NCBI GenBank assembly: GCA_965204745.1
Contig: OZ242010.1
Span: forward strand, 2,624,001-2,688,000
Source: Candidatus Latescibacterota bacterium
GTDB lineage: Bacteria > Latescibacterota > UBA2968
Direction of reading: 5' to 3'
DNA: 64,000 bases
The position numbers and the translations under genes are program-made. Each line of letters opens with the position of its first letter. Position 1 is the first letter of the stretch. This document shows, in pieces, positions 2,630 to 57,990 of the stretch. The notes beneath the pieces are model-generated. The model made no database searches. It was given only the letters and a program-made list of their open reading frames with translations, and was not told the DNA's origin.

Positions 2630-2671
2630 GCACGCCACTCATCCATCCGCATAACCGAAAAAGCGAAAAAA

Positions 2672-2956: not shown

Positions 2957-3122
2957 CCGGTGGGACGGATTACGCAGATTACGCGGATTACCCCATACCG
3001 CCCCACCGCAAGCCCTATCCCTAAGTAAGAGGCAAGAGGTAAGAGGCGAGACCGGCCCACAACCCTTCCGCCGCTTCATCGTTCCCACTCCGCAGTGTCT
3101 TTCGCATCCCCCGCCGCCATAG

Positions 3123-3380
3123 AGACCTATCCCCCCGGCCCCCGTTATTTGCTTCGCTCATTGTAGGCTACACCTGTGCCTACAAGGAAAGGGGGAGCGC
3201 ATGGCTTTCTTGAAGGGTTGCATCCAGGGCTGTTCTGATGGCTTTGAGTGAATGGATAATGCCATGAAAATCCAACCCCCTATCGCGCAATCCCCTCGCA
3301 AGACCTCTCGCCATTCCCCTCGCAAAACCGCTCACCGTTCCCCCCTTCCTTTTAGGAAGGGGGGTTAGGGGGGTAGGTCC
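3123..3380. repeat. REP/MITE-like composite element (arm A ... inverted arm B)
   Basis: GACCTATCCCCC...AGGAAAGGGG arm and inverted CCCCCTTCCT..AGGAAGGGGGGTTAGGGGGGTAGGTCC arm; related copies at 10337, 10577, 36332, 40201, 43578 and 58007. Confidence 0.85.
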
Positions 3381-3387
3381 AGAAGTA

Positions 3388-3424
3388 AAGCCCGAGTTCA
3401 CTGTGAACCCGGGCTTTTGTTTTC
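3388..3424. terminator. Probable bidirectional intrinsic terminator
   Basis: AAAGCCCGAGTTCAC-T-GTGAACCCGGGCTTTTGTTTT hairpin downstream of the large surface-protein gene. Confidence 0.6.
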
Positions 3425-3446
3425 CCTTTCGCGTCTTTCGCATTTG

Positions 3447-3641
3447 TCAGCCTGATGAGCCAAAGTCGGCGGCGAAGATGAGGAAATCGTCGAATCCAAT
3501 TTCGCCATCGCCATCGCACCGGGCGTCATATCGCTCCTGTCCGAGCCGCGAGCCGAACTTATCCGCAAAGGTCAAGAAGTCGGCGAAATTCACATCGCCA
3601 TCGCCATCTTCATCTGTGGCGGTCAGGGAACAGGCTTTCAT
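3447..3641 (-). CDS. Orphan EF-hand/dockerin-like peptide, possibly a vestigial C-terminal domain
   Basis: Two 'DGDG.V/I.F.DFL.FA..FG' motifs; ATGA overlap with the stop of the large gene; no signal peptide. Confidence 0.5.
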   Translation of the reverse strand: MKACSLTATDEDGDGDVNFADFLTFADKFGSRLGQERYDARCDGDGEIGFDDFLIFAADFGSSG

Positions 3642-6600
3642 TGGAAGTGGGAGTCGGGATAGAGGCTTCGGATGTAGGGTTCAATGGCTTGAGCGGTCGT
3701 GCGCGTAGCATTTTGCTCGATGACGTTCCCTCTGAGGAGGGCCTCGTTCCGGAAGAAGAGGACGTATCGAATGATCAGGATTATATCCGAGAACAGCCTC
3801 ACATCGCCATCGCCATCCACATCGAGAATGTTCTGATTGACCAACGTGTCGAGGTAGGGTTCAATTTCTTGAGCGGTCTTGCGCGTGGCAGTTGGCTCGA
3901 TGACGTTCCCTCTGAGGAGGGCCTCTTCCCGGAAGAAGAGGACATATCGAATGACCAGGATTATATCCGAGAACAATCTCACCCGGCCATCGCCATCCAC
4001 ATCCAAGTTGGCACTCGGGGTTTCGTCATCGATAATCGTCCCTGTGCCTTGCGCCGTGCTTATGGTCGCATTGGTCGCACTGCTCAGCGTCACGATCACG
4101 GTCTCGTTCTGCTCATCATCCGAGTCGTCGGTCACAGAAACAGCGATGGTCTGGATGGTATCGCCTACCGCGAAGGTCAGGGTCCCTGCGGTAAGCGCGG
4201 TGTAATCTGTCCCCGAAGTCGCGGTGCCCGTGCCAGCGTCTGCATACGCCACCGTCACTTGTAACGTGTTGTGCGCTGGGCGTAGGTACACCCTAAAGGT
4301 CAGGGTCGCGCTGGTCGCGCCTTCAATCACGCTTGGCGAACCGATACTCAGCGTAGGCATGCCATCGTCATCGATAATCGTCCCGGTGCCTTGCGCCGTG
4401 CTTATGGTCGCATTGGTCGCACTGCTCAGCGTCACGATCACGGTCTCGTTCTGCTCATCATCCGAGTCGTCGGTCACAGAAACAGCGATGGTCTGGCTGG
4501 TCGTGCCCGCCGCGAAGGTCAGGGTTCCTGCGGTGAGCGCGGTGTAGTCTGTCCCCGAAGTCGCGGTGCCCGTGCTCGCGTCTGCATACGCCACCGTCAC
4601 CTCCTTGCCGCTCACCTCATTCAATCTAACGGTGAACGTCAGGGCAGTGCCCTCAACCGCACTTGGCGAACTAATCGAGAGCCTCGGCGGCGGGTCATCA
4701 TCGGTGATCGTTATCGCAGTTGGGAGGACCACACTGCCCTGGTCGTTGTCTGCCACAACGGTCACGGTCACGTCGCGATTAGGCGCGTCTCGGGTGTTGT
4801 CCACCGCTGTGATGACCACCGTGTCCGACGCGTTCGCGGTTTGCCCTGCCGCGATGGTGATCGTCGAATCCGTCCCCACCGTGTAAGCACCCGCCACCGG
4901 GCGCACCGTGATCGTCGTCGTTGCGCTCAATGGGTGTGCCAGCGTCGCGGTCACGGTGCTCATCCCACCGCTTTCCGAGATCGACGAGGGCGTCAGTGCC
5001 AACGTCACTATCGCGGGTTGGAGCTGAAATTGCACGGTGGTGTCCAGGCCGGCATACTTCAAGGCCGGATACTGATCCATCGCGCCAAAGGTCCACGGAT
5101 CGTCGTTGCCGGCTTGTCCGTCTATGTTGGCGTTCCAGCCGTAGTAGGTGTCGTTGCTGGTGGCACCGTAGGTGGTGGGGCTCTGGAGCTCGCTGGTCGT
5201 CTTGCCCGCAGCGCCGCTACCGCCGAAGCTGGTTTGGCGTCCGCTGGTTTGGGTGTCCCAGTAGCTGCCGCTAACCGTGCCCGTGCCGGCATTCGACTCG
5301 CCCAACAGCCCGCCGATAGATGTCATCGACCCGCTGGAGAGGCTGACTGCGCCGGTGGAGTAGGAGTTTGTTATGGAGCCGGCGGCGGCTTTTGAGCCTA
5401 CCAGCCCACCGAGGTTCTGAGTCGCGCTGACGGATGCGAGGGAGTAGCTTGTGGAAATGGCACCTCCGGTCCAGCCGACCAGACCGCCGACGACATTGTC
5501 GCCCGTCATGCTGCCGGTGGTGTAGCAGGCGACGATTTCGCCGCGATTGCCGCCGACCAGAATGCCACTAAAGTCGTCTGCCGTAACATCGGCGTCGGTT
5601 ACGCCCAGCGACTCGATGCGGGAGTTGGTGCCGGTGCCGCCGAACAGTGCTTGGTAGCTGACAGCGGAGCGGCTGATGAACAGGTTTTGGACGGTGTAGC
5701 CGTTGCCTTTGAAATCGCCTGTGTATCGTAACGCTGGGCTGGCGTCGGAGCCGATGGGCATCCAGCCTTGGCCGCTATTCCAGTAGGTGGTGTCTGCTTG
5801 GGTGATCGCGCCATCGTTGTTCTCGTCAAAGTCCAAGTTGTTGAGCAGTTCGTAGCCAGTGCAACCGCTGGAAGGGCAACCCTTGCTCGCTGACAAGTTC
5901 CCGTTGGGAAAGGCGGCGTTGTAGGCGGTCGTATCGGCGGTCGTGGCACTTGAGTCTATGGCACCATCGCCATTGATATCCCAGCGCATGGCATGCAGTT
6001 GTGCCAAGGTCGAGACCTCGAGGAGGCCATCGCTATCCGTGTCGTAATGCACGGGTTGGGCAGCGTACTGCGCCGTGGTGTCCAGGCCGGCAAACGTCAA
6101 GACCGGATACTGCTTTGTCGTGCCAAAGGTCCAGGGATCATCATCGTTGGTCCCCGAAGCATCTATGGTCAGATCGTCCCAGTTGGCATAGATGCCGCTC
6201 GCAGACGTGATCGATTGTAAGTCGGCAGTCAGCTTGCCCTCCGGCGCAACAGTATCGCTATCATCGACAATGCCGCTTGTTTGCGTGTCCCAGTAGCTAT
6301 CGGTCACTGTACCAGCCGAACTGCCCACCAAACCCCCTTTCGTACCGGCACCCGTGACTGCGCCCGTCGCGTAGCTGGCGGTCACGTCACTGCCGCTCGC
6401 GATTTGACCCACCAAACCGCCGCCCACCGCGCTACTGTGTCCCGCGAACACCGTGCCCAGCGCGTAAGACGCCACCACCTCGGTCTGATCGGTCAGCCAA
6501 CCCACCAAACCGCCGGCCATCCCGCCACTCGTCACATGTGCAGGAACCCGCACAGAGACGAGCGCGTAGCTGCTCACAATGCGATTAGTGCCCGAAGTGC

Positions 6601-9600
6601 GATAAGACCGACCAACCAAACCACCCACACCCCACTTCGACCCCGAAACGCGACCCGTCACATAACACGACGAGATGGTGCTCCCACCACCTTGATTACC
6701 GGCCAGACCACCCACGCGGTCAGCACCGGTCACATTCACATTCAACAACCCCAATCCCGAAACATCGCCATCAACCGCCTGGAACAATCCTGTATTATGC
6801 CGAGACCCCCGGTTGATGAACAGGTGGGAGATCGTCTTGTTGTTGCCTTTGAACGTGCCGCCGTAAGGCCCCACAGGGTCCCAGCCGGCGCCGCCATTCC
6901 AGTAGGTGGCGTCTGCTGCGGTGATCTCGCCGTCGCCGGAGGTGTCAAAGTCCAGGTTGGCGAGCAGTTCGTAGCCGGTGCATCCCGGGAAGCAACCCAT
7001 ACGGGTGGCGGTGTCCCGGTTTGGAAAAGCAGTGTTGTAGGCGGTCGTATCGGCGGTCGAGGCACTGGCGTCTATGGCACCATCGCCATCGAGATCCCAG
7101 CGCATGGCGTTGAGTTGCGCCAGCGTGGTGATAGCGATGAGGCCATCGCCATCGGTATCGTAATTGGTGAGACCTGTAGCGCGCATGACCTCAACCGATC
7201 CATCGCGCGCACCGGTCTTGCTGGCAATGACACGCACTGTGTAGGTCGTCCCCGACGCCAAGGGAATCTTGAGGAACGTAGCCGTGGGGGTGGCCTCACG
7301 CGCGGCGTCGTAGCTTTGCATGCCGGATTTCCACTGCACGGTGTATCCCGTCGCTTGACTCGCCGCACGCCAGTGTACGTACAAGGTGTCCCCATTAGAT
7401 GTCACTGCCACACGCGGCGGTATGCTCGGTTGCAACGCAAGTTGCGCGGTGGTATCCAGGCCGGCATACTTCAAGACCGGATACTGATTCGTCGCGCCAA
7501 AGTACCACGGATCGTCGTTGCCCGCTTGCCCGTCCAGATTTTGGTTCCAGTTGAGGTAGCTGCCGGTATAGCCGGTGGGGCTTTGGAGGGCGCTGGTGGT
7601 TAGACCGCCAAGGGTGTTGATGAGGGTCCCAGCGGTGGTGCTCTGCCCGGTGGTTTGGGTGTCCCAGCGGCCGTAGGTTATCGCCGCCGTGATTGAACCA
7701 CCCCGTTGTGCCGCCAGGCCGCCGGTGGCTGTGGTGCCGGTGCTGGTGTTGGAAACAGTGCCGATAGCATAGACAGCACTTATCGAGTTCGCGTCAGTGA
7801 CCTGCACTTGACCTATCAGGCCGCCCGCTTTGACGCCGGAGCCGGTGCCGGAAACGTTCCCGGTTGCGTAGCTGGAGCGCAGGTATTCGCCACTACCGAG
7901 ATTTATCTGCCCGATCAGGCCGCCCACTTTGAAGCTGAGGGCGTCGGTAACACCGGTGCCGGTGCCACTACCGGAAACATTCCCGGTCGCGTAGTTGGCG
8001 TAGCTGGGACCAGCCATATGCCCGATCAGGCCGCCCATTCTGCCGGTGCCGCTCCCGGAAACGTTCCCAGTCGCGTAGCTAACGCTGACCCGGTCCCCGG
8101 CCCAACCTATCAGGCCACCGGCGGCGATGGAGCCGGTGCCGGTGATGGTGACCGTCCCAGTGGCATAGGTGGAGTCGACGCTACCGGCGGCTGTCCCGAT
8201 CAGGCCGCCGATGAACAACGAATTGTTGTTCGTTCCGACCACATTGCAGGTGGCGTAGCTATCGCTGACGGTGCCATTGGAGTAGCCCAACAGACAGCCG
8301 GTATAGCCAGTGGCACTGGCACTGCTGGTGTTGTGGGTTACGGAGCCGCCGGCAACGTAGCTCCCGCGCACCGCGCCGCCGGCATTGAGGAGCCCCGCCA
8401 AGGCACCGGTTTGACCCACGTTGTTCGAACTGGCGGTGGAAGTGCGGGTGTTGGTGATATTCACGTCCAACAAGCCCACATCTCTAATCGTGCCGCTGAC
8501 ATCGCCGAACAGACCGACGAAACCGCCGCCGGTGGCGGTGCTGGTGCTGTCAGCGATAAACAAGTTGGAAATGGTGTTGTCATTGCCATCAAAGGTGGCG
8601 GAGAAGGCGGTTGCAGCGCCGGTGGACGCCACACCGATGGGCGTCCAGCCAGCGCCGCTGTTCCAGTAGGTGGCGTCTGCTGCGGTGATTGAGCCATCGT
8701 TGTTCTCGTCAAAGTCCAAGTTGTTGAGCAACTCGTAGCCGGTGCAACCGCCGGTGGCCGGGCAACCCATCCGGCCGCTACTGGCGGTAATGTCGCCGCC
8801 GAGAAAGGCGTTAGCATAGGCGATGGTGTCGGCGTTGGTGCCGGTGGGCAAGCCATCGCCGTTCAAGTCGTAGCGGATGGCGTTTAACTGCAACAGGGAA
8901 GTCACGTCAATCAGGCCGTCGTTGTCGCCGTCGTGGTCAACTACCCGCTGGCTGGGGGTTCTCAGGGTCGGGTCCTGGCTGGTGGTGCCGAAGTTCCACG
9001 GGTTGTCGGGGACACGATCACCGTCCACATCTACGTTCCAGTTGGCGTATATGCCGGTGTAGGTGATGGGATTTTGGAGATCGCTGGTGCTCTTGCCGGT
9101 AACGCCTGCGTTGCTACCGGGTAATGCGCCGGGAGCAACGACGCCGATGCCACCGGGCCGCTCGCTGGTTAAGGTATTCCAGTAATTGTTGGACTGGGTA
9201 TTGCTGGCACATGAGCATCCGAGCAACCCGCCGACGTTGTTGTTGCCGCTGACCCTGCCGATGGAGTAAGAGTTTGATATTAAGGCGAAAGTGCTAAAGC
9301 CCACCAGACCGCCGACATACTGCCCCCCGCTGACAGATGCAGTGGAATAGGTGGTGTTGATATCTCCGCCGTTAAAGCCGTTATAGCCTACTAATCCACC
9401 GGTTTGATCTCCGCCTTGCACTGCGCCGGTGACGTAGCAGGCGACGATTGGGCTTCCACTATTTCCGCCTGCCAGAATGCCGGTATTGTCTCTTCCCCGA
9501 ACGTTGGCGTTGGTTACGCCCAGGCTTTCTATGCGGCCGGATTGAATGGAGCCGAACAGTCCGACGTAGCCTGTGTTGTTTCGGCTGATGAACAGGTTGT

Positions 9601-45286: not shown

Positions 45287-45351
45287 CTTTTTGCGGTCAG
45301 TGCTCTATTTTGTTATCCACATGAAGCCAAAACAAAAACTTGGAAATTGTC

Positions 45352-45627
45352 ATGCCACCCGTCACTGTCACACTGGATACCGATTTGGCTACCTTGTTGC
45401 AGAAACGCGATCAGCCCATTCAGAAAACGGCTCGCGAAATGATCATTCTGGAGCTCTACCGTCAAGGAAGCATATCCAGCGGCAAGGCGGCGCAATTACT
45501 GAACCTGTCGCGCTGGGAGTTTATCCAACATGCATCCCAACTGGGCATTGCTTTCTTTGATCTCAACGCTGAGGAATGGCAACGCGAACGGCTTCGGGCT
45601 GATGAGGCCGAACCATTGACTTTTTGA
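45352..45627 (+). CDS. UPF0175 family protein (orphan antitoxin-like)
   Basis: 'LELYRQGSISSGKAAQLLNLSRWEF'. Confidence 0.85.
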   Translation: MPPVTVTLDTDLATLLQKRDQPIQKTAREMIILELYRQGSISSGKAAQLLNLSRWEFIQHASQLGIAFFDLNAEEWQRERLRADEAEPLTF

Positions 45628-46943: not shown

Positions 46944-49112
46944 TTGCCCATCCTCTTTCCCCTCGTCTATATTCTCGCGCTCGGCGCGGCGGAGGGGGCA
47001 GTGTTGCTCGAAGGCTATATTTTTGACCGCACAACCCAACGTGCGATTGAAAATGTCGGCATTAGCTGGGACGAGGGCGCAGGAGTTGCCACGAGCAATG
47101 CGCGCGGGCGATTCGTCTTGCGCTTGTCCCCGGGCGCGCACCACCTCTCCTTTTCGCGCATTGGCTACCGCACAGCGCGCAGGGAAGTCGCGGTTCTCGC
47201 CGGGAAAATGCCCATCTTGTACATCGCGATGACCGCGCGGGAAATCGAATTGGACACCCTGGACGTGGTCGCCAAAACCGCTGAAACCCGCTTTGAAGCC
47301 CTCCACGAACTCACGGGCACGCTCGCGGGAGACGAACTCGAACGGAAATACAGCCGCACCCTCGCGGAAACGATCAAAAATGAAATCGGCGTTGCCATTC
47401 GCAGCATGGGGCCTGCGCCCGCGCGCCCGGTCATTCGCGGCTTGAGTGGGGACCGCGTGCAGATCAACTTGGATGGGATTCGCACGCGCGACTTGTCTGC
47501 CACCTCAGCGGATCACGCGGTCGCGCTCGAACCCTACGGCATCCAACGCCTCGAAATCATCCGCGGCCCGCGCACCTTGCTCCACAGCGCGTCCGCCATT
47601 GGCGGGGTGATCAATGCGGTCAAATACAAAATCCCCGAAACCCAACCGCATCGCGTTTCTGGCAACGCGGGCGCGTACGGGGAAACGATCAATCGCGGGT
47701 ATCTCTCCGCAACATCCATCACAACGCCTGTGGGACCGCTCGCCCTGTACGCGGAAACCACGTACCGCGATACGCGGGATGTGCAGACGCCTATCGGCAA
47801 GTTGGACAACACGGCCATCGACACGCGCACGTACACCCTCGGCCTGTCATACCCCACGCGCAGGGGGTACATCGGCGCGTCCTTTGACCAATTCACCACG
47901 GAATACGGCGTACCCGGCGGCTTTATCGGCGCGCATCCCAATGGCGCGGATTTGGACATTTCGCGCCGCGTCTTTGATGGCAAGGCCGCCTACACCTTTG
48001 ACCACGCGGTGATCGATGGGGTCGAAGCGAGTTTTGCCAAAACGTTTTATCACCATTTTGAATACGAATCCAGCGGCAGCATCGGCTCGGAATTTCTGTT
48101 TCACACGTACAACGCGGACCTCGAGTTGCACGTCGGCCCGTCCCGCATCGCCTTCGGCTTTGACCACACCAATCTCAAACTCGGGGGATATGCTTTTACC
48201 CCGCCCACGCGCGAACAAAACGCGACTGTGGGCCTGTACCGCGAATGGACGCATCGCCAACTCGAACTTCAAGCCGCGGCTCGCTACACCTACGCCCAAT
48301 TTGACCCGCGCCCCGATGCCCGAACCCGCGTGGGCCTGGATGTGGATCGCACCTTTCACACCTGGTCCGCGGCCATCAGCCCGCTCGTATCCCTGTCCGA
48401 CGGATTGCGTGCTGGCCTCGGCCTGAGCAGGTCGCAGCGCGTGCCCACTATCGAAGAACTCTACAACGAAGGCCCGCACTTGGCCGCGTACACGTACGAG
48501 GTGGGCAATGTCGATCTCCACGCGGAAACGAGCATCGGCGTGGAGGTGTTTTTTCACTACTTGCGCCCGGGCTTTGATTTTGTCCTCAGCGGCTATTGGA
48601 ACGAGTTCGACACCTATATCGCCCCGCGCAATACCGGGGCGATCAATTTTACCCAACTCTTGCCGATCTACGCCGCCGATGGCATCGCCGCGCGGTTTTT
48701 GGGCGCGGAAATGCACATGGGCTGGCGGCCCGATGCCCGGCTCAATTTGGAATTGAACAGCAGCTACGTGCGCGGTCAAAACCGGACCGATCACCTGCCC
48801 CTGCCGGAAATGCCCCCGCTCAAACTCAATGCCGAAGCGACTTATCGCTTTCCCCTTTTCGCCCTGGGCTTGACCGCCGAGTTCGCCGCGGCTCAAAACC
48901 GCGTGGACACGCACGAGACCCCAACGGATCGCTACATCGTCACGGGCGCGTTCTTACAACGCCACTTCCAAACCGCCCACACCCGGCACACGGTGATGCT
49001 CTCGGTCCACAACCTTTTCAACCGAGAATACCGCAACCACCTCTCGCGCATTCGCTCCGTCATGCCAGAACCGGGGCGCAACGTGCGGTTGAATTACAAG
49101 GTGTATTTTTAG
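46944..49112 (+). CDS. TonB-dependent receptor (ZnuD-like metal receptor)
   Basis: 'RSMGPAPARPVIRGLSGDRV', 'SADHAV', 'RGPRTLL', 'ELYNEGPHLA', 'YRNHLSRI...PEPGRN'; start uncertain. Confidence 0.88.
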   Translation: MPILFPLVYILALGAAEGAVLLEGYIFDRTTQRAIENVGISWDEGAGVATSNARGRFVLRLSPGAHHLSFSRIGYRTARREVAVLAGKMPILYIAMTAREIELDTLDVVAKTAETRFEALHELTGTLAGDELERKYSRTLAETIKNEIGVAIRSMGPAPARPVIRGLSGDRVQINLDGIRTRDLSATSADHAVALEPYGIQRLEIIRGPRTLLHSASAIGGVINAVKYKIPETQPHRVSGNAGAYGETINRGYLSATSITTPVGPLALYAETTYRDTRDVQTPIGKLDNTAIDTRTYTLGLSYPTRRGYIGASFDQFTTEYGVPGGFIGAHPNGADLDISRRVFDGKAAYTFDHAVIDGVEASFAKTFYHHFEYESSGSIGSEFLFHTYNADLELHVGPSRIAFGFDHTNLKLGGYAFTPPTREQNATVGLYREWTHRQLELQAAARYTYAQFDPRPDARTRVGLDVDRTFHTWSAAISPLVSLSDGLRAGLGLSRSQRVPTIEELYNEGPHLAAYTYEVGNVDLHAETSIGVEVFFHYLRPGFDFVLSGYWNEFDTYIAPRNTGAINFTQLLPIYAADGIAARFLGAEMHMGWRPDARLNLELNSSYVRGQNRTDHLPLPEMPPLKLNAEATYRFPLFALGLTAEFAAAQNRVDTHETPTDRYIVTGAFLQRHFQTAHTRHTVMLSVHNLFNREYRNHLSRIRSVMPEPGRNVRLNYKVYF

Positions 49113-49503
49113 GTCGTGTGTGCCCATCCACTCCCGAGGCCCGCGCTTGCCACACAAGCGCGGGCCAACGGCTCTCCACCCGTGCGTTCCCTGCCCACCT
49201 CTCCGTGTGCGTGACCCCGGCTTTGCGCGCCAGTAGCATCAGTTCCACCTACCCTCCATCACCCGTAGAGACGGGCCAAACCACTGCTCAAATTCATTCG
49301 CAAATTCAACCTACCCTCTAGCCCCGTAGGGATAGGCCCCCGTGCCTGTCCGTGCATATAGCGGTGGATGGCAGGGATCGAAAATCGCGAATGGCGAAAC
49401 GCTGACCGCTATTTGGTTGCCCATCTCACTTGGGGCGTTTATATTGGGCGCGGCTGAAGCAGGACAAAGCGGTGTTCACAACTTGAACCCAAAGGATGGT
49501 AGC

Positions 49504-51630
49504 ATGGATATAATCTCAAGAGATAGAAAATGGCGAGAAGAGCGCACGTTGCAAAAGGCTCTTGCCAAATGCCGCCGTGCAGCTCAGGAAGGATACGAGA
49601 TCGCGAGTAAGAACCTTGACGGAATCAAGATCGCCATAGATGGGGTTTCGGCTGATTTGAAACAAAACTTGTCAAGCCTGAATCATAGACAAGTCAATAC
49701 GAACGACGTCGACGTTCAGCTTCAAAAACAACGCCAACAAGCGGTCTCAGAACTCTATCAGTTGTACAAAAAATCGCGTGCCTCATTGGAAGAGAAACGT
49801 GCGCAGTTGGACAAATTTTCCATTGCCCTCTTTGGTCGCACGATGACTGGCAAGTCAACATTGATGGAAATTTTGACCAACGGCGACGGTTCATCTATCG
49901 GTAAGGGATCCCAACGCACGACCCGGGACGTGCGTAGCTATGACTGGAAAGGGCTTGAAGTTACCGATGTGCCTGGTATAGCCGCGTTTGAAGGCAGAGA
50001 GGACGAAGAAAAGGCATTTGAGGCCGCTGTGCTATCGGACTTGGTGCTCTTTCTCATCACAGACGACGCACCACAAAACGAAGAAGCCAAGTGTCTCGCC
50101 CGCGTTCGGGCACTTGGCAAGCCGATTCTGGGTATCTGTAACGTTAAAGCCGCTCTCAACAATGCAGATGATGTAAGCCTTTTTTTTCGAAGGAATTGGT
50201 TCAAGCGCAAACGAAAGGATCTCGATGCTATCGTCCGACAATTCCACGAGTTTGCGGAAAGAGACAGTCCGGGTAGCCGAATTTCCTTCGCATATACCCA
50301 TTTGCAGTTAAAGTTCCTGTCTCAACAACCTGGGTACGAGCCGCAGAAGGAAGATTTGGAATCTGCGAGTCGCTTCAACCGCGTTGAAGAACAAATCATT
50401 TTGGAGGTGATCAGCCGTGGAACATTCTTGCGATGGAAGAGCTTCATTGATGGCACTGTCGTTCCAATGCTCAAGTTTAGCGACACACTTTTGGATTTTA
50501 GTGCCCAAAACTCGTCCAGTGATCGCGCTGACAAGAGGCGACAAGTCGAGTCGTGGTCTGATCGATTTCGCAAAAGTGGGAAAGAACGTATTGATATGTT
50601 CATCGAGAAAGAAGTGGGCTCGCTACGCGCTAAAATTTCGGGATTCGTGGAAGACAACTACGAGGCGCGCGATGCTGGCGAGTGCTGGAACCGCTTAGTC
50701 GAGAATCAAGGCATAGATCGAAAGGCAGAGAAACTTGTCGAGCAAATCGTGAATGAATGTAAAGACGAACTGTCAGAAATAGCACCGCAACTTAAATCCG
50801 AACTAAATTTCGTCGGTCGGTTTTCTGGCGACCGCAGGATTAGTATGGATTCTATATTTGACTCAAAACGCGTTTGGAACTGGGGGACCAAACTTCTTTT
50901 TGCGCTTAGTCTTGCCGCCGCTCTTTTTGTCAACGGTCCCCTCGGCTGGGTTGCTGGGGCTACTGCGGCAGTAGTTGGAGTAATCGGGCGGCTCTTCTCG
51001 GGACTCTTTAAGGACAGAGAGGCGAAGGTGCGAAAGCAACGCGCACAACTCGAAAGCAGGCTCAAACGAGATATTAAAAAGATAGAACGTAACCTCCAAA
51101 AGCAACTTGGTGATTGGTTCCACCAAGACCTGCTCAAAAAGCAAGTCTCTGTCTGTCTCGACGAATTCTCGGCTATCACATCGAATCTCTTCAAATTGGC
51201 GGATTCACAAAGAAATCTGGCGTGGGAACTCAACAAGCATCAGAAACGTCTGCACCGCATCCTGATCGACAAAGCACTTGGGCAACTTGGACATAAAGAC
51301 TGTGGGAACCTCATTTCGGATATAGCCCGAGTGTCTGGACTGGCAATTATGCTGCTGATTGAGCCTAACACGACATTCCCCGGAGAAGTGCGTAGGGATT
51401 TAGAGAAACTGCTTGGGGAAAAGGTATTCGTAGTCAACACCCGCAACAAAGTCTCAATTTTAGCCCAAGCCATTGGGCTCGACTGCGACCGGAGTAAAGT
51501 CAGTATCGAATCAGACATTCAAGTGGCACACATTCCGGTAGATGATCTCGATAAGGTTGGCATCTCTCGTATCCGGCTCGCACAGCAGTTGACCGAACTG
51601 CATGTGATGAAATCAAAAGGGAGGGTATAA
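49504..51630 (+). CDS. Dynamin-like GTPase with TM hairpin and C-terminal NusA-like KH region
   Basis: G1 GRTMTGKST, G2 RTT, G3 DVPG, G4-like NVK; helical stalk; hydrophobic 'LLFALSLAAALFVNGPLGWVAG'; lower GC than the flanks. Confidence 0.8.
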   Translation: MDIISRDRKWREERTLQKALAKCRRAAQEGYEIASKNLDGIKIAIDGVSADLKQNLSSLNHRQVNTNDVDVQLQKQRQQAVSELYQLYKKSRASLEEKRAQLDKFSIALFGRTMTGKSTLMEILTNGDGSSIGKGSQRTTRDVRSYDWKGLEVTDVPGIAAFEGREDEEKAFEAAVLSDLVLFLITDDAPQNEEAKCLARVRALGKPILGICNVKAALNNADDVSLFFRRNWFKRKRKDLDAIVRQFHEFAERDSPGSRISFAYTHLQLKFLSQQPGYEPQKEDLESASRFNRVEEQIILEVISRGTFLRWKSFIDGTVVPMLKFSDTLLDFSAQNSSSDRADKRRQVESWSDRFRKSGKERIDMFIEKEVGSLRAKISGFVEDNYEARDAGECWNRLVENQGIDRKAEKLVEQIVNECKDELSEIAPQLKSELNFVGRFSGDRRISMDSIFDSKRVWNWGTKLLFALSLAAALFVNGPLGWVAGATAAVVGVIGRLFSGLFKDREAKVRKQRAQLESRLKRDIKKIERNLQKQLGDWFHQDLLKKQVSVCLDEFSAITSNLFKLADSQRNLAWELNKHQKRLHRILIDKALGQLGHKDCGNLISDIARVSGLAIMLLIEPNTTFPGEVRRDLEKLLGEKVFVVNTRNKVSILAQAIGLDCDRSKVSIESDIQVAHIPVDDLDKVGISRIRLAQQLTELHVMKSKGRV

Positions 51631-51633
51631 CCC

Positions 51634-53352
51634 ATGAAAACCTTAAAACTTCGGCAATGGGCCGAAAAGGGGCAGGCCCTGCTCAATAGGGCAAAAAGCG
51701 TCCTCAAAGACGCGCCTCTTGACAAAGTGCGGGACTTTGCACAGCGAGTTCCGGGAGAAGTGGCACCTCCTGACGAATCCGTGCAAGTGGTCTTTGCTGG
51801 TCAATACAGTGCCGGCAAGTCTTCGATTCTCAAGGCACTGACCGGAGAAGACATCGAGATTGGGGCCGCCATCACGACTCAAAAAGTGCAACAACTCGAC
51901 TGGAAAGGAATCAAAGTGACCGATACACCTGGCGTCCACACGGAGTTGCGGCCCGATCAAGACGCAATAACGTACGAGGCGATCAGCAAAGCCGATCTCT
52001 TGGTCTTTGTCATTACCAACGAATTGTTTGACTCCCATATCGCGGAGCATTTTAGGAAACTCGCCATTGATCGGGAAAAAGCCCACGAAATGCTGTTGGT
52101 TGTGAACAAGATGCAACGATGTGCCGAGGGGAATACACCAGAAGTTCAGAACACAATTCAGGAAGACCTCCGAAAAGTCCTCGCACCGTTCACCCCGGAA
52201 CAACTTCGCATCTCTTTTGTGGACGCCGAATCCGAACTTGAGGCCCGCGCAGACCGGGATGAGGAGCTTCGCAGAATTTTCCGGCGAAGAAGTGGCTTTG
52301 ATGGCTTTATTGATAATCTCGATGCGTTTGTGGAGGAAAAGGGGTTGGCTGCGCGTTATACGACATCGCTCTACACGCTCGAACAGGTGCTCCAAGAGGC
52401 CCTTGCCGCCGAGGCGAGCGATGATATCGATGTAGATGCTTTGCAAGAATTGCTTACTCAGCAACGACGTGCATTAGTGAATGGTAAGGCACAGGTTTCT
52501 CAGTCCGTGGAAAGTAAGGTCCAACAGACTGTAAATGAGATTAGGGAGGAAGGACGCAAGGCGGCGGACCTAATTCGTGGAGGCGCGAACTCCGAGGCTG
52601 TCAATCGGAAATTAACGGTTGCCCAAGGGCGCGTTGAAAAGCAGGCGGATGAGTTGTCGGGACTCATTCAAAAAACGATGGAAGAGGGTATCAGCAATCT
52701 CGCGGGGAGGGTGACGCAAATTGCGGAGAGCGAATTAGCTAAAGAGTTGCTATCGAGGCTAAGAAAAAGAGTCCAAGATCTCGACATGGATCCTGAGACG
52801 TTGTCTAAGATGAAACAAGGTGGAGATGTAACCTACCGACTTGGATCGTTTCTAGTAAGTAAGTCTTTTACTCCCACAACCTCGACCTTCTCCGGTCTGT
52901 TCAAACTCAACCAGTATTCGGGTACAGCAACTCACGGTATGGTTAAAACCACTGGTCATTTTTTTGGGAAATCCTTTAAGTCGTGGGAGGCGGTAAAGTG
53001 GACCCGTAGGATCGCAAATGCTAGTCGGGTTTTGGCTGTATTAGGGATGCTTTTGACCATTTTGACTCAGATCATAGAAGACGCCAGGGCTGCCAAGCTG
53101 GAACAGGAATTGCGCGAAGGCCGGGCGGCGGTGCGGGCAGGATTTGACGAAGCCGCCCATGCGGTTGAACTCCATTTCGATGAAGAGACCAACACCTATG
53201 TCGACGAAACCATCGGCAAGCGCATTGCAGAGGTGGATGAGCAACTCGAGGAACTTAGAGATATGCAGCAATCGCGTAGCGAGCTCTTCCAAGAACTCAC
53301 GGGCCTGTTGGAAGATACCCGATCACTCATCTCGGAAATGCACGCGTCGTAA
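51634..53352 (+). CDS. LeoA/HP0731-like dynamin-like GTPase
   Basis: G1 GQYSAGKSS, G3 DTPG, G4 NKM; LeoA-type 'GHFFGKSFKSWEAVK' paddle. Confidence 0.82.
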   Translation: MKTLKLRQWAEKGQALLNRAKSVLKDAPLDKVRDFAQRVPGEVAPPDESVQVVFAGQYSAGKSSILKALTGEDIEIGAAITTQKVQQLDWKGIKVTDTPGVHTELRPDQDAITYEAISKADLLVFVITNELFDSHIAEHFRKLAIDREKAHEMLLVVNKMQRCAEGNTPEVQNTIQEDLRKVLAPFTPEQLRISFVDAESELEARADRDEELRRIFRRRSGFDGFIDNLDAFVEEKGLAARYTTSLYTLEQVLQEALAAEASDDIDVDALQELLTQQRRALVNGKAQVSQSVESKVQQTVNEIREEGRKAADLIRGGANSEAVNRKLTVAQGRVEKQADELSGLIQKTMEEGISNLAGRVTQIAESELAKELLSRLRKRVQDLDMDPETLSKMKQGGDVTYRLGSFLVSKSFTPTTSTFSGLFKLNQYSGTATHGMVKTTGHFFGKSFKSWEAVKWTRRIANASRVLAVLGMLLTILTQIIEDARAAKLEQELREGRAAVRAGFDEAAHAVELHFDEETNTYVDETIGKRIAEVDEQLEELRDMQQSRSELFQELTGLLEDTRSLISEMHAS

Positions 53353-53369: not shown

Positions 53370-53435
53370 TTGTGGCTACAGATCGAATGGGGTTGGGTGG
53401 GCTGATTGCTGGCGATAGAAAAGGAAACTTTCCCC

Positions 53436-55004
53436 ATGCGCTTTTTTAATACCGCCGGGCCTGTAGTGGCTGAAGACCATTACTGTATCCCGCCCTTAGA
53501 ACGGCTAAATCTCGTCGAGGTGCGTCGACTCATCCGGGACAAACGCTACTTCGTCCTGCACGCGCCTCGGCAGACGGGCAAGACCTCGGCTCTGCTGGCC
53601 TTGCGCGACCTGCTCAACGCCGAAGGCGCGTACCGTTGCGTGTACGCCAATATCGAAGGCGGGCAGGCCATGCGCGAAGATGTGGAACAGGTCATGCGCG
53701 TCATTCTGGGCGAGTTGGCACTCCGGGCGAGTTTGCTGGGCGATGAGTTTCTGGACGAGATTTGGCCCGACATCTTGACCAAGAGCGGGCCGGGTGCTGC
53801 GTTGCGCGTGGCCTTGACGCGCTGGGCCAATGCGGATCCGAAACCGCTGGTGTTGCTCATCGACGAGATAGACGCGCTGATCGGCGACTCGCTCCTATCT
53901 GTGTTGCGGCAGTTGCGCGCTGGCTACGACCAGCGTCCAAAGTATTTTCCGCAAAGCATAGTGCTGTGCGGAATACGCGATGTGCGCGATTACCGCATCC
54001 ATTCCGGTTCTGCAAATGCCGTCATTGCAGGGGGCAGCGCGTTTAATATTAAATCGCGCTCGTTGCGATTGGGCGACTTCTCGCAGGACGAGGTGCGCGC
54101 CTTGCTCGCACAGCATACAAAGGAGACGGGGCAGGCGTTCACCCCCGACGCACTGGACGCGATCTGGCATCAGACGCAGGGGCAACCGTGGCTGGTCAAC
54201 GCCTTGGCAGATCAAACCTGCTTCCGAGATGGTGCCGAGGATCGAAGCGATCCCGTCACTGCTACCGCTGTCGTCGAGGCGAAAGAGCAACTCATCCTGC
54301 GCCGCGAAACGCACCTCGATCAGTTGACCGACAAACTCCAAGAAGAGCGCGTGCGGCGCATTGTCGAACCGATCTTGAGCGGCGGCGATGAGGAACGCCA
54401 CTTCACGGATCGCGATTTGGGGTATGTACAGGATCTCGGGCTCGTGGGTCAAGATCAACCGTATCGCATCGCCAATCCGATCTACGCCGAAGTCGTGCCC
54501 CGCGAATTGACATGGGTGGTCCAAGGGGAATTTGAGCAGGAAACGGTCTGGTACATCCAGGCCGATGGCAGTTTGGATGTGGTCAAATTGCTGGCCGAGT
54601 TCCAGACCTTTTTCCGCGAACATTCCGAGCATTGGGTCAAGCGATTCGCGTATCAAGAGGCCGGCCCCCAGTTGCTGTTACAGGCGTTTTTGCAAAGGAT
54701 CATGAATAGCGGTGGGCGTATCGAACGCGAGTATGGCTTGGGCCGCATGCGTACCGATCTGCTCATCATCTGGCCGCAGGGCGAGCGCAAATTCGTGATC
54801 GAGTGCAAAGTGCTCCGCAAGACCTTGGAACGGACTATCGCCGAGGGTTTGGAACAGACCGCAGACTACATGGATCGCTGCGATGCAGAGGCGGGGCATC
54901 TGGTGATCTTTGACCGCCGCGAGGATCGGCGTTGGCCGGACAAGATATTTCGGGATCGCCGAGCGTCTGACAGTGGCGTTGAGATCGAGGTATGGGGGAT
55001 GTGA
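53436..55004 (+). CDS. AAA ATPase fused to a C-terminal PD-(D/E)XK nuclease-like domain
   Basis: 'MRFFNTAGP', Walker A 'APRQTGKT', Walker B 'LLIDEID', 'EREY.LG..RTDL...VIECK'. Confidence 0.88.
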   Translation: MRFFNTAGPVVAEDHYCIPPLERLNLVEVRRLIRDKRYFVLHAPRQTGKTSALLALRDLLNAEGAYRCVYANIEGGQAMREDVEQVMRVILGELALRASLLGDEFLDEIWPDILTKSGPGAALRVALTRWANADPKPLVLLIDEIDALIGDSLLSVLRQLRAGYDQRPKYFPQSIVLCGIRDVRDYRIHSGSANAVIAGGSAFNIKSRSLRLGDFSQDEVRALLAQHTKETGQAFTPDALDAIWHQTQGQPWLVNALADQTCFRDGAEDRSDPVTATAVVEAKEQLILRRETHLDQLTDKLQEERVRRIVEPILSGGDEERHFTDRDLGYVQDLGLVGQDQPYRIANPIYAEVVPRELTWVVQGEFEQETVWYIQADGSLDVVKLLAEFQTFFREHSEHWVKRFAYQEAGPQLLLQAFLQRIMNSGGRIEREYGLGRMRTDLLIIWPQGERKFVIECKVLRKTLERTIAEGLEQTADYMDRCDAEAGHLVIFDRREDRRWPDKIFRDRRASDSGVEIEVWGM

Positions 55005-55043
55005 GGAAGGCCGGCGAAATGGGGCATGGTTGCGTACTGTCAG

Positions 55044-55067
55044 GTCGTAAGGTTGCGCTTGGGCGCG
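55044..55067 (+). repeat. 24-bp direct repeat, copy 2
   Basis: Identical to 53346-53369. Confidence 0.9.
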
Positions 55068-55101
55068 ACTCGTTGCACAATTTTGAACCGGGAGTTTTGA
55101 C

Positions 55102-55806
55102 GTGCATCATCCGAAAAAAGAAAAACCCGATCTCCTCGAGCGCGGCGCGCCTGTCGATGGTGAGTCGCAGGTGAGTGATCGGCGGCTCTACATGCAGTTG
55201 CAGGTCTTCACGGGGGTTCGGGATGTGGCCGCTGTGGTTCGCGCACTCGACCAAAGCGGCCTCGAGTACGCGCTCTATTTGGACGCGCACGACCCTTGTG
55301 GTATTGGCGTCGTCTTTCTCGCGAAATCGCCCGATCTGTTTGTGACCGACATCCGCGCCGCGCTCACCCGCGAGCCCTTCTGTTCCTACACGCGCCGGCC
55401 CGAACTCGCCATGCTCGGGCGCACGTACGCCACGGGCTACGAACCGGACCTCGAGTACGCGCTCATCACCCGGCCGCGCAACAATGTGCTCAACCCCGAA
55501 TGGCCCTGGGCGATATGGTATCCCTTGCGCCGCAACGGGGATTTCGCCCGCCTCAACCACAAAGAACAACGCGCAATTCTCATGGAACACGCCGCGATTG
55601 GGCGCGCTTATGGCCGCGAGAATCACGCGCACGACATTCGCTTGGCCTGCTATGGCCTCGATCCCAACGACAATGATTTTGTCATCGGCTTAATCGGAGC
55701 CGAACTCCATCCCCTCTCTCGCGTTGTGCAAGACATGCGAAAAACCCAACAAACCGCGCTCTACATGGAATCGCTGGGGCCGTTTTTTGTCGGAAAAAAA
55801 GTGTGA
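55102..55806 (+). CDS. Chlorite dismutase / coproheme decarboxylase (HemQ-like) family protein
   Basis: 'WAIWYPLRR', 'ILMEHAAIG', 'YGLDPNDNDFV', 'MRKT', 'GPFFVG'. Confidence 0.82.
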   Translation: MHHPKKEKPDLLERGAPVDGESQVSDRRLYMQLQVFTGVRDVAAVVRALDQSGLEYALYLDAHDPCGIGVVFLAKSPDLFVTDIRAALTREPFCSYTRRPELAMLGRTYATGYEPDLEYALITRPRNNVLNPEWPWAIWYPLRRNGDFARLNHKEQRAILMEHAAIGRAYGRENHAHDIRLACYGLDPNDNDFVIGLIGAELHPLSRVVQDMRKTQQTALYMESLGPFFVGKKV

Positions 55807-55846
55807 AAAGTCGCGTGTCCGAACGAGGCAAAGGAGTCATAAGTGC

Positions 55847-56197
55847 ATGAGTTGGCGTCCCTTCATCAAACTCTACCCATCCACGCTCGACATCATACAA
55901 CTGGGCGTCAATCTCATTGTTCGCACAGCTATTCTCACACTCGTGTTGAGTTGTTTCCTGCTCATTGGCCTGAGCTTCAATTGGCTGATAAACTTCGGAT
56001 TAGAGGTATTGGAAGCTCCTGAAATTGGCAAGAAGATATTGTCGCAGATCGCGCTTGTGTATATCTTGGTCGTAGGGGGCGCGGCTACGTTAACTAGCAC
56101 TATGGTCGTGGTTTATTTGACAATCGCCGACCTGCGTAATTTTCCGACCCAAGTGCCGAGCGATAAAAATGGAGGCGATGGTGATGCCAAATATTAA
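55847..56197 (+). CDS. Hypothetical two-TM membrane protein
   Basis: AAGGAG SD; two hydrophobic stretches; lower GC. Confidence 0.6.
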   Translation: MSWRPFIKLYPSTLDIIQLGVNLIVRTAILTLVLSCFLLIGLSFNWLINFGLEVLEAPEIGKKILSQIALVYILVVGGAATLTSTMVVVYLTIADLRNFPTQVPSDKNGGDGDAKY

Positions 56198-56762
56198 GCT
56201 CCTTCTCATGAGAGACTTCAAGTTGGCGATAATACACGCCACCGTGTGGATACTTTTGTTTTGGATTTCAGGATATCCCATAGATGAATGGGCTGTGACT
56301 GCGGTTGTCTTGTACATCCCGCTGTGGTTGTCAATAGAGATCGTTCTCAGGGTGGTATCCTTTACGGCAAGGCGTCTGTCCAATTACGTGAGCCGCGCCG
56401 CACAGAGGGCCGGGATAGAATTTCCCGAGAGTCGGCCTCATGGCCTTTCCAACAAGCGATGCCCTATCGCCGTATTTCTGATATTGTTCTCCACGATCAT
56501 TGGCCTTTCATTGAGCGTTGGCATACCCGCCGCTGGTCTGGTTGGACTCACACCTCTGCCATCTTATTTTTTTTGGGTAGCATTGGGATTTCTCTGTATC
56601 GGAGGGCTGGGCTTGTCGCTGATTTTTGGTATCGCAGCAACCATACTCGCTGTGGTTAACGCGCTACATGAAGGCTTGGGGCCGAGAATCACGCGCTCTC
56701 ACGCAATGACTCGGGATGTAGCCGTTGCCGCTGGGTTTTTCCAAGAATCTATGTCAGCGTAA
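56169..56762 (+). CDS. Hypothetical four-TM membrane protein
   Basis: Overlaps the previous gene; GGAGG SD; four hydrophobic segments. Confidence 0.6.
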   Translation: MEAMVMPNIKLLLMRDFKLAIIHATVWILLFWISGYPIDEWAVTAVVLYIPLWLSIEIVLRVVSFTARRLSNYVSRAAQRAGIEFPESRPHGLSNKRCPIAVFLILFSTIIGLSLSVGIPAAGLVGLTPLPSYFFWVALGFLCIGGLGLSLIFGIAATILAVVNALHEGLGPRITRSHAMTRDVAVAAGFFQESMSA

Positions 56763-56781
56763 ATGGAAATCGGAGTTGTCC

Positions 56782-57990
56782 ATGATCCAGCGGCTTGAAA
56801 CCCTTTATTATCGGTGCTTGCGCCATGTTGAACAGGACCTCGCGCGCTTCCACCTCTTGGCGGGCGCGAATGGCAGTGGGAAAACCGCCTTTCTCGACGC
56901 GCTGGCATTTCTCGGGGATTTCGTGCGCGATGGCCTTGACGCGGCCATTTACAGTCGGGCTAGCGACTTGCGCGACCTCACTTGGCACGGGCTTGCGGAC
57001 CGATTTGAAATCGCGGTTGAATTGCCCGTGCCCGAACGCGAATCCAATCTCTTTTCGGACCGGGACTTCTCGCGCTGTCGCTACGAACTCGCCATCGGCA
57101 CCATCGAAGAAACCGAGGCCATCGGCATTCTCTCTGAGCGCGTGCTCTTGCTCACGGACATCCAGCGGGACGCCCGCGCCATCCAAGAATCGCTCTTTCC
57201 AGTGGATGATCCCACGCCGCAAACCCTGGCCACGCGCCGGTTGCGCGGCATCAAAACCATCGTCAACAAAGTGCCGGGGGGCAACGACAAGTTTTACGAT
57301 GAATCCGGTGCGGGATGGGATCCCACCTTCAAACTCGGCGTGCGGCGTTCCGCACTCGGCAACCTGCCCGAAGACGAAGCGCGTTTCCCCATCGCCACTT
57401 GGCTCAAACACACCCTCTCAAACCGCATTCGCACCCTGACCTTCAACAGCGACCAACTCAGACAGCCCTGCCCGCCGGGGCAACCGCTCGACCTGTTGCC
57501 CGACGCCGGCAACCTGCCATGGGTCGTCGCGGCGATAGAGAAAAACGCGCCGCACAGGCATGCGGCGTGGCTTGCGTGCTTGCACGCGGTTTTGCCGGGC
57601 CTATCGGCTGTTCACGCGGTTGTGCGTCCCGAAGACCAGCACGCCTATCTCGTGGTCAACCACCACAACGACCTCGAAACCCCGTCGTGGATGTTGTCAG
57701 ACGGCACCCTGCATCTGCTCGCCCTGACCCTGCTCGCCCATGCGCCGGATTACGCTGGAACATGCCTCATCGAAGAACTCGAAAACGGCCTTCACGCCGC
57801 CGCTATCGAACCGGTCTTCAACGCACTCTGCACCGTGCCAACCGCCCAAATTTTGGCAACCACGCACTCGCCCATCATTCTCAACTGCGCGGATCCCGAC
57901 CAAGTGCTTTGCTTCATCACCACGGAAACAGGCGCGACTCAGGTGGAGCGGTCAGCGGTCAGCAAACCAAAGCGAAACGCCGATAGCTGA
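56782..57990 (+). CDS. AAA_21/ABC-type ATPase, resembling the MADS Mad3 ATPase
   Basis: 'LYYRCLRHV', Walker A 'GANGSGKT', signature 'LSDGT', Walker B 'LIEELENGLH', H-loop 'TTHSP'. Confidence 0.8.
   Translation: MIQRLETLYYRCLRHVEQDLARFHLLAGANGSGKTAFLDALAFLGDFVRDGLDAAIYSRASDLRDLTWHGLADRFEIAVELPVPERESNLFSDRDFSRCRYELAIGTIEETEAIGILSERVLLLTDIQRDARAIQESLFPVDDPTPQTLATRRLRGIKTIVNKVPGGNDKFYDESGAGWDPTFKLGVRRSALGNLPEDEARFPIATWLKHTLSNRIRTLTFNSDQLRQPCPPGQPLDLLPDAGNLPWVVAAIEKNAPHRHAAWLACLHAVLPGLSAVHAVVRPEDQHAYLVVNHHNDLETPSWMLSDGTLHLLALTLLAHAPDYAGTCLIEELENGLHAAAIEPVFNALCTVPTAQILATTHSPIILNCADPDQVLCFITTETGATQVERSAVSKPKRNADS

Follow-up and report, generated by a model that had tools for sequence, protein, structure and literature searches.

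Why should a dynamin-like GTPase end in a domain that resembles a part of NusA? The question is raised by a two-gene locus in the genome of a Candidatus Latescibacterota bacterium (contig OZ242010.1), within a stretch of 64,000 nucleotides (positions 2,624,001 to 2,688,000 of the forward strand) that was analysed as a whole and is here called the window; positions below are counted from its first letter. Two adjoining genes on the + strand, leoBC followed by leoA, very probably form a horizontally acquired two-gene module of the Eleos type, in which each product is a dynamin-like GTPase that carries a hydrophobic membrane tip. The C-terminal domain of LeoBC is homologous to the KH1-KH2 tandem of NusA, and this tail is an ancestral, well-conserved part of the fused LeoBC proteins. 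In the clade of the window protein both GXXG loops of the tandem are deleted, and we favour a role for the tail in protein contacts or regulation; for the explanation as a whole, the Eleos identity taken together with the role of the tail, we estimate a probability of roughly 55%.

The leoBC reading frame is open from position 49342, and its probable start is the ATG at 49504, which is backed by an AGGA 10 nt upstream and by a length (708 residues) equal to that of the homologues. The gene ends in a TAA (51628-51630), followed by CCC and then by the leoA ATG at 51634, a gap of 3 nt. The GC content is 0.48-0.52 over seven 500-nt bins (49500-52999), against 0.58-0.62 at 47000-49499 and 0.57-0.62 at 53500-55499; the open reading frame calls and the bins thus bear out an earlier note on this DNA, made by eye, which described two GTPases 3 nt apart and lower in GC than their flanks. 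The PADLOC LeoBC profile matches the first protein with an E value of 3.6e-98 (328 bits, residues 15-640, profile positions 6-594 of 601) and the LeoA profile matches the second with 7.8e-113 (376.5 bits, profile positions 6-555 of 559). Pfam recognises only the GTPase core in LeoBC (MMR_HSR1, E 1e-11), and in LeoA both MMR_HSR1 and Dynamin_N above cut-off (35.1 bits for Dynamin_N, with a cut-off of 27). Both P-loops are intact (GRTMTGKS in LeoBC, GQYSAGKS in LeoA).

An AlphaFold2 model of full-length LeoBC was obtained with a predicted local distance difference test score (pLDDT) of 79.2; here and below, all structural statements on LeoBC and its tail refer to predicted models. From the N-terminus it comprises two long helices, the G domain, a helical stalk, a hydrophobic tip, a 90-residue return helix and an alpha/beta module, with pLDDT below 50 for residues 436-504, which span the tip. 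The best PDB matches of this model in Foldseek are BDLP (2j69, E 6e-9) and LeoA of enterotoxigenic Escherichia coli (ETEC; 4aur, 2.2e-8), then IniA; MFN1, MxA/B and Cj-DLP are among the others, and the whole set spans E 6e-9 to 1.6e-4. The highest template modelling (TM) score, for 5oxf/5owv, is 0.30-0.32. The PADLOC matches and the dynamin matches in Foldseek therefore identify the locus as an Eleos-type dynamin-like pair, as had been proposed from G motifs, a helical stalk and a hydrophobic paddle; the motifs and hydrophobic windows were found in both proteins and the stalk in the LeoBC model. By analogy with the BDLP family, both proteins would bind the membrane through the tip.

To characterise the C-terminus, the last 125 residues of LeoBC (584-708; 51253-51627) were modelled on their own by AlphaFold2 from a 95-homologue alignment and no templates, which gave a pLDDT of 94.7 and a predicted TM score of 0.85. 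The tail is folded as helix-helix, beta-beta-alpha-beta and alpha-beta-beta-alpha-beta. When it was compared with the PDB by Foldseek, all 14 matches at E<=0.001 were NusA or NusA-containing complexes (TM 0.59-0.74), and archaeal KH proteins ranked after them at E>=3e-3. VIA-align over the Foldseek list placed NusA at Z 11.2-9.0 with a root-mean-square deviation (rmsd) of 2.7-3.1 Å and 120-123 of the 125 residues aligned, the tail superposing on residues 201-346 of E. coli NusA, 185-328 of the M. tuberculosis protein and 200-343 of that from T. maritima. The same program, run against 48,161 representative chains with no Foldseek prefilter, returned seven chains at Z>=8.0, six of which are NusA or NusA2 (Z 11.1-9.3, rmsd 2.8-3.5, 116-122 of 125 residues): four bacterial NusA chains at 11.0-11.1, archaeal NusA at 10.0 and NusA2 at 9.3. 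The first fold other than NusA was ribosomal eS7, with Z 8.0 and an rmsd of 5.0. Identity between the tail and NusA in the structure alignments is 16-22%.

Profile comparison leads to the same place. A NusA KH1-KH2 profile was built from 24 NusA sequences belonging to the same phylum as the window, one of them the true NusA of this genome, which is encoded elsewhere (G000:C1:4054966-4055985). Aligned with it by hhalign, the tail profile scored 45.5 over 99 columns (probability 94.0%, E 1.4e-7), and the best of the controls, one reversed and 20 column-shuffled NusA templates, reached a score of 17.1 and E 0.031. The alignment pairs ARVSG with SREPG, LLGEKVFVV with LSNERIDIV, ILAQAIG with FLSRALS and RIRLAQQLTELHV with NARLAAQLTGWNV, the same segments that the earlier note had matched by eye between the last ~105 residues and NusA KH1-KH2, so that its alignment is upheld by hhalign and its proposed fold by the AlphaFold2 model and Foldseek. 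Tail and NusA have in common the motifs ARxPG, L.GE followed by a hydrophobic strand, and RLAxQLTG, and judged from the sequences we take the identities to be structural core motifs.

Direct sequence searches gave a very different picture. BLASTP of the tail against the NusA of the genome found only an 11-residue match at E 0.49; the homology is therefore visible only by profiles or structure. A search of PDB sequences with the 125-residue tail yielded three matches at E 0.34-0.68 and nothing useful, and profiles from two alignments (A1 and A2) found GTPase-domain matches only, or none, among PDB sequences. Pfam contained no KH family matching the whole of LeoBC at E<=1 or the 125-residue tail at E<=0.01, and neither a KH family nor PF26594 is recorded on any of the best 120 LeoBC homologues listed. 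The relation to NusA went undetected in PADLOC and PHROGs searches with the tail, ESM Atlas gave no usable match to it, and among the viral structures of BFVD the best TM scores were 0.31-0.36, none convincing. Profile searches for the NusA_N and S1 domains had no match in LeoBC.

The two gaps in the hhalign alignment fall exactly at the GXXG loops of NusA. In the KH1 half the loop and the preceding helix are deleted, leaving a gap opposite NusA DPVGACVGMKG of 9 columns in hhalign and 10 in MAFFT; in the KH2 half the loop is shortened and the GXXG lost. Across 96 aligned rows of the window clade, GxxG is never found at the KH1 site, and the three cases of G..G at the KH2 site are unconserved and due to chance, which agrees with the absence of RNA-binding loops reported earlier from the window protein. 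The tail is better conserved than the stalk, and only the G domain surpasses it: in the narrower homologue alignment, A2, conservation is 0.75 in the G domain, 0.68 in KH1, 0.66 in KH2 and 0.60 in the stalk. The last helix of KH2 is conserved (R.RLAQQLT), with Q695 and L696 invariant and Q694 nearly so. The net charge of window-type tails is -2 to +3 with a median of 0 (n=7), and the median across 86 tails is +2.

We then asked how widely the tail is distributed. When 1.84 billion representatives were searched by phmmer for the tail, 84 proteins matched at E<=0.001, with no NusA among them, and in 82 the match ends 20 residues or fewer from the end of the protein (the exceptions are P0141 and P0143). 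Of these proteins 41 have 692-1052 residues, and the shorter ones are taken for fragments or split genes. The best 120 full-length homologues are 53-100% identical, and in 115 of them 80 or more of the 100 C-terminal residues are covered. Related loci were collected as the best 80 of 169 relatives in species-representative genomes, using A2. Latescibacterota are closest (63-72% identity), and the other hosts include Binatia, Neisseria, Ferrovum, Bacillus, Heyndrickxia, many Clostridia, Dehalococcoidia, Bacteroidaceae and Collinsella. A hidden Markov model (HMM) of the tail matches the C-terminus of LeoBC in 77 of the 80 loci, over the whole model in 74 and partially in three (L090, L100 and L106); of the remaining three, the tail is deleted in L052, lies in the second piece of a split gene in L089 and is cut off by the contig end in L093. 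A LeoA-like frame lies directly downstream in 77 of the 80, and the three misses are at contig edges.

Additions at the N-terminus of relatives leave the tail in place. Ankyrin repeats are found there in P0136 (1052 residues) and P0132 (888 residues), and an AMPK1_CBM glycogen-binding module in P0177; such additions may be variable elements for sensing or targeting. The idea that the tail itself is a variable sensor cassette was rejected, as it stays constant while the N-terminal additions vary. In the Binatia metagenome-assembled genome (L052:6116-8806), a LeoBC relative (60% identity over residues 15-587) is joined in frame to LeoA, and both the KH tail and the N-terminus of LeoA are lost; the resulting two-headed, DynA-like protein is either real or an assembly error. 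A rumen proteobacterium (L088) carries two tandem pairs (BC 151-2457, A 2563-4269, BC 4513-6681, A 6696-8390), with the tail on both LeoBC copies.

The earlier note put forward that the tail could be an integrated decoy or sensor. As a decoy it would be a look-alike bound by phage proteins that seize NusA, such as antiterminators, which would thereby trigger the system. In favour of this are the homology to NusA in fold and profile and the general precedent for decoy sensing in immunity, but the 16-22% identity is concentrated in the few motif blocks taken as structural core, and the surface-exposed GXXG loops, the most prominent surface features of NusA, are the parts that have been deleted. 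Moreover, the tail is alike across phyla whose NusA proteins differ, and so does not track the NusA of the host. The site on NusA known to be bound by lambda N and Nun is its C-terminal acidic repeat and not the KH pair; some of the top structural matches are NusA within lambda N and Q antitermination complexes, which reflects the structures that have been solved and not contact. We consider a decoy very improbable, while a sensor role of some kind is possible.

More distant relatives were found on plasmids. With tblastn, LeoBC-like genes of 24-28% identity were detected in 20 plasmid records at E<=1e-20 (16 Bacillus, 3 Klebsiella and 1 Pseudanabaena), and a LeoA-like gene is next downstream in both loci inspected, one from B. 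cereus and one from Klebsiella. PADLOC scores for these pairs (LeoBC E 5.8e-102 to 3.5e-109; LeoA E 1.8e-112 and 2.6e-126) are as strong as those of the window genes. In hhalign the Bacillus-type tail matches the window-type profile at 96.9% (E 1.7e-10) and that of NusA at 94.7% (E 6e-8), and it has the KH1 deletion in common with the window type. In precomputed Pfam annotation PF26594 is found on 14 of 14 Bacillus-type LeoBC homologues. This family, which is probably the second NusA KH domain, is also on all 120 NusA homologues listed, beside other NusA domains, and is therefore NusA-specific. A local Pfam search of Bacillus-type tails gave sub-threshold matches to KH_NusA_C (E 6.5e-5 and 1.9e-4), plus KH_1 and KH_2 at the same site. 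For the Klebsiella tail the match is weaker (HMM E 4.1e-7, hhalign 83%), with V-R-I-P-G, and I-G-K-D-H ahead of the last helix, discernible by eye. A second Bacillota LeoBC (L116) was found only with filters off (E 2.1e-6) together with hhalign (94.3%). The presence of the tail in 77 of 80 loci and in a Bacillaceae clade with a GXXG loop and a NusA-specific Pfam family indicates that it is ancestral in LeoBC. The earlier note had regarded the architecture as unusual, and here it has to be corrected: the fusion is conserved, and in these 77 loci as well as in the Bacillus and Klebsiella plasmid clades it is normal for fused LeoBC to end in the KH tail.

Two LeoBC records, P0339 and P0340, bear the public names 'transcription antitermination factor NusA-like protein' and 'Transcription elongation factor NusA'. 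These names are probably automatic and driven by the KH2 match, and the tail accounts for them as mis-annotations of a dynamin-like GTPase. One NusA-named LeoBC comes from Rossellomorea aquimaris, of the genus to which B. vietnamensis now belongs. A further distant LeoBC-like protein (28% identity, 809 residues) is encoded in a genome of the same genus as the window (G007; L114:1117-3546, - strand). Its tail retains only the first half of KH1 (HMM positions 2-66, E 1.3e-5), beyond which lies a twice-repeated Pro/Ser/Lys-rich tail of ~55 residues.

What the pair does may be approached from the family. On phage infection LeoBC and LeoA would come together at the membrane by way of their G domains, and GTP hydrolysis by the membrane-anchored pair would then remodel or seal it. 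Since the tail follows the 90-residue return helix, it should sit near the G domain and neck, as in a BDLP-type topology, and from there it may gate G-domain pairing or assembly. Such a protein-contact or regulatory module is our preferred role for the window-clade tail, argued by analogy and held tentatively, at somewhat less than even confidence; we favour it because the GXXG loops are absent and there is no net positive charge, and other KH-like folds without GXXG, the KH-like domain of Der/EngA and DnaA domain I, offer a precedent for such a role. Prediction of a complex between the tail (584-708, with A2) and LeoA (with alignment A3) scored 0.00 in two runs in which the controls did not fold, a result that carries no weight either way.

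Several observations weigh against parts of this explanation. The NCBIfam model NF041922 (LeoA/HP0731), with a cut-off of 325, gives 58.9 bits for LeoA and 13.7 for LeoBC, and the immediate flanks of the pair, a TonB-dependent receptor and an AAA ATPase, do not make a classical defence island. R609, R689 and Q694-Q695 are among the best-conserved residues of the tail, for which nucleic-acid contact is equally possible. In the Bacillus type, a canonical loop, I-G-[RK]-x-G, stands right before N-I-R-L-A in the KH2 of 13 out of 14 proteins, and the tail carries a net charge of +2 to +8 (median +5). Loop and charge together mean that the ancestral role may be nucleic-acid binding, partly surviving in the window clade.

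These last points bear on a second possibility, that the KH tail has kept a function as nucleic-acid sensor or tether. Its binding of phage RNA or single-stranded DNA close to the membrane, such as where injection or early transcription takes place, would then recruit or activate the pair, in the window clade via non-canonical contacts. This possibility would be in keeping with homology to the RNA-binding KH1-KH2 of NusA, with the loop, charge and PF26594 of the Bacillaceae clade and with the conserved Arg and Gln on the last helix. KH domains, however, are known to require the GXXG loop for nucleic-acid binding, and in the window clade the loops are physically deleted, with GXXG in 0 of 96 at KH1 and by chance in 3 of 96 at KH2, and the net charge is about 0. 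We therefore regard a surviving nucleic-acid role here as rather unlikely and canonical RNA binding by the window-clade tail as less likely than protein contact; as the ancestral role, given the Bacillus-type loop, nucleic-acid binding is likelier. A more far-reaching reading, which we hold to be doubtful, joins the two: the NusA-derived KH pair would be the trigger-reading module of Eleos, and a single immune system would show a natural gradation from sensing RNA to sensing protein. The Bacillus-type tail would grip nascent phage RNA or a membrane-side transcription complex, as NusA does on RNA polymerase, this contact would license GTP-driven membrane remodelling, and the window clade would have swapped the RNA ligand for a protein ligand. 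If true, this would fit defence against jumbo phages that inject their own polymerase.

The closest characterised system is the Eleos pair of Bacillus (now Rossellomorea) vietnamensis NBRC 101237. According to a preprint, B. subtilis carrying it is protected from the jumbo phages AR9 and PBS1, the defence being lost on P-loop mutation of either protein (Millman 2022). The name Eleos comes from a second preprint (Cury 2022), and in the accessible portions of both the mechanism and trigger are described as unknown (Millman 2022, Cury 2022). The window locus resembles the B. vietnamensis system in having two adjoining same-strand GTPase genes, LeoBC-type then LeoA-type, with intact P-loops; it differs in that it comes from another phylum and is known here by sequence. 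Window LeoBC is ~25-27% identical to the Bacillaceae type, which keeps the KH2 GXXG that the window clade lacks, and the tail is present in a protein (P0208/P0339) from the same genus as the tested B. vietnamensis.

In ETEC H10407 the first protein is split into LeoC (206 residues) and LeoB (572 residues), as stated in the part available to us of Michie 2014 (PMC4159319). The window pair shares with ETEC LeoABC the dynamin fold, 4aur being the second-best match of the LeoBC model, and the pairing of LeoA with a LeoBC-type protein; unlike LeoB and LeoC, its first protein is fused, and its LeoA reaches 58.9 bits against the LeoA/HP0731 cut-off of 325. The PADLOC LeoB profile (568 positions) stops at residue ~583-591 of fused proteins, just before the tail, from which we infer that ETEC LeoB probably has none. 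In accounts available in part, BDLP, Campylobacter DLP1/DLP2 and B. subtilis DynA are paired dynamin-like proteins (DLPs) that tether or fuse membranes, and DynA protects against phage. The window pair is like BDLP and DLP1/DLP2 in being a tandem-encoded DLP pair, with BDLP 2j69 as its best Foldseek match, but none of the structures of BDLP, DLP1/DLP2 or DynA matched the KH tail; a two-headed layout like that of DynA occurs in one Binatia relative (L052), where the tail is deleted.

The tail can also be set beside other KH folds. It agrees with NusA KH1-KH2 (1hh2, 5lm9, 2asb and 1k0r) in having two type II KH folds in tandem (Z 11.0-11.1, rmsd 2.8-3.1 Å, 122 of 125 residues), and differs in lacking the GXXG loops and the helix before the first, in having no N-terminal or S1 domain and in being joined to a dynamin-like GTPase. 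When each half of the model was aligned by VIA-align with KH-like folds, DnaA domain I gave Z 6.1 and 5.7, Der/EngA 5.2 and 4.3 and DciA 5.0, a range common for this tool. Like the tail, these lack the RNA-binding loop, and each fits one half of it; unlike the tail, they are single domains with no NusA-type tandem. No relation of the tail in sequence to Der/EngA, DnaA domain I or DciA was found. Der joins a KH-like domain to GTPase domains, and KH-like folds without GXXG bind proteins or ribosomes.

We found no paper in the literature searched that describes a KH or NusA-like domain in LeoBC, and neither 'NusA' nor 'KH domain' occurs in the accessible text of Michie 2014 (PMC4159319), Millman 2022 or Cury 2022. 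The pair itself is an ordinary member of the known Eleos kind; what is notable is the family-wide NusA-derived domain and its series of forms with and without the loop. The tail is as conserved as any part of LeoBC outside the G domain, occurs naturally both in forms that have an RNA-binding loop and in forms that lack one, and is the one piece of LeoBC missing from LeoA at that end. Together these properties provide a handle on what Eleos senses and how its GTPases are gated, and the NusA-like tail may help to explain how Eleos works.

The pair is accessory and very probably horizontally acquired, for which its low GC speaks as well. Of the 18 other genomes in the genus, four contain a match at E<=1e-20, and of 12 from the sister family none does; LeoBC at E<=1e-40 is present in 3 of 401 sampled Bacillota genomes, the centre genome of the query counted. 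When eight neighbouring genes of the window were searched for in the 80 loci, none recurred beside the pair, save one gene at one locus. Two of the four same-genus matches are close (65-67% identity), both with an in-frame stop or a contig break. These two LeoBC copies (G050:C1:5767966-5770062 and G046) look damaged or broken up: one contains an in-frame TAA, and the other is cut by a contig edge at residue 604, with its tail on another contig and an in-frame TGA. LeoBC was not found by tblastn against phage genomes.

A different function is conceivable, of the kind originally put forward for ETEC LeoABC, in which the two proteins would be housekeeping or niche membrane-remodelling dynamins, acting in vesicle release or membrane repair and not in defence. 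Profile matches are blind to function, the flanks in the window are not clearly defence genes, and leoA and leoB are tied to vesicle release in ETEC in the available part of Michie 2014 (PMC4159319). On the other hand, the two-gene system is reported, in the accessible part of the preprint, to be phage-protective and to adjoin defence systems in 60% of cases (Millman 2022). Relatives of the pair lie on plasmids, and an AAA_21/HEC-01A-like ATPase is encoded 3.4 kb downstream of leoA. With the patchy distribution of the pair in the genus and its low GC added to these, we think a function outside defence improbable, and defence by an Eleos pair remains our reading. The coordinates of both genes and their parts are collected in Table 1.

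Table 1. Positions in the window of the leoBC and leoA genes and of the domains and motifs assigned to their products.
Feature	Positions	Strand	Basis
leoBC, dynamin-like GTPase, first gene of the probable Eleos pair, 708 residues	49504-51630	+	PADLOC, Pfam, Foldseek
LeoBC GTPase domain, residues ~101-275	49804-50328	+	motifs and secondary structure of the model
LeoBC P-loop GRTMTGKS, residues 111-118	49834-49857	+	motif
LeoBC DVPG, residues 155-158	49966-49977	+	motif
LeoBC NVKA, residues 213-216	50140-50151	+	motif
LeoBC hydrophobic tip/paddle, residues 457-502	50872-51009	+	top Kyte-Doolittle windows; low pLDDT
LeoBC long return helix, residues 505-594	51016-51285	+	single helix in the model
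LeoBC KH1-like half, residues 604-648, beta-beta-alpha-beta	51313-51447	+	model, hhalign, MAFFT
LeoBC KH2-like half, residues 649-703, alpha-beta-beta-alpha-beta	51448-51612	+	model, hhalign, alignment
leoA, dynamin-like GTPase, second gene, 572 residues, without KH tail	51634-53352	+	PADLOC, Pfam
LeoA P-loop GQYSAGKS, residues 56-63	51799-51822	+	motif
LeoA DTPG, residues 97-100; NKMQ, residues 158-161		+	motifs
LeoA hydrophobic tip, residues ~460-481	53011-53076	+	most hydrophobic 19-residue windows

Upstream, the neighbour of the pair is the gene for the TonB-dependent receptor. Downstream there follow, in order, an AAA ATPase without a PADLOC match, a chlorite-dismutase-like protein, membrane open reading frames and the AAA_21/HEC-01A-like ATPase. 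The first of these, right after leoA (53406-55004, +), is a 532-residue ATPase of the AAA_22/AAA_35 type; a homologue (E 3.4e-97) was found in locus L061 only, ~2 kb downstream of the pair and on the opposite strand. A three-gene system that includes this ATPase was rejected, because a homologue is found at just one of the 80 loci, where it lies on the opposite strand, and the ATPase has no PADLOC match. The small membrane open reading frames occupy a region (55500-56500) with a GC content of 0.49-0.53. The AAA_21 ATPase (56725-57990, +; 421 residues) matches PADLOC HEC-01A with E 1.4e-35, and also the AriA and PtuA models, and may be part of another defence system. At 45340-45627 (+) a 95-residue protein of the UPF0175 family matches the PADLOC candidate PDC-S70 (E 6e-12) and looks antitoxin-like.

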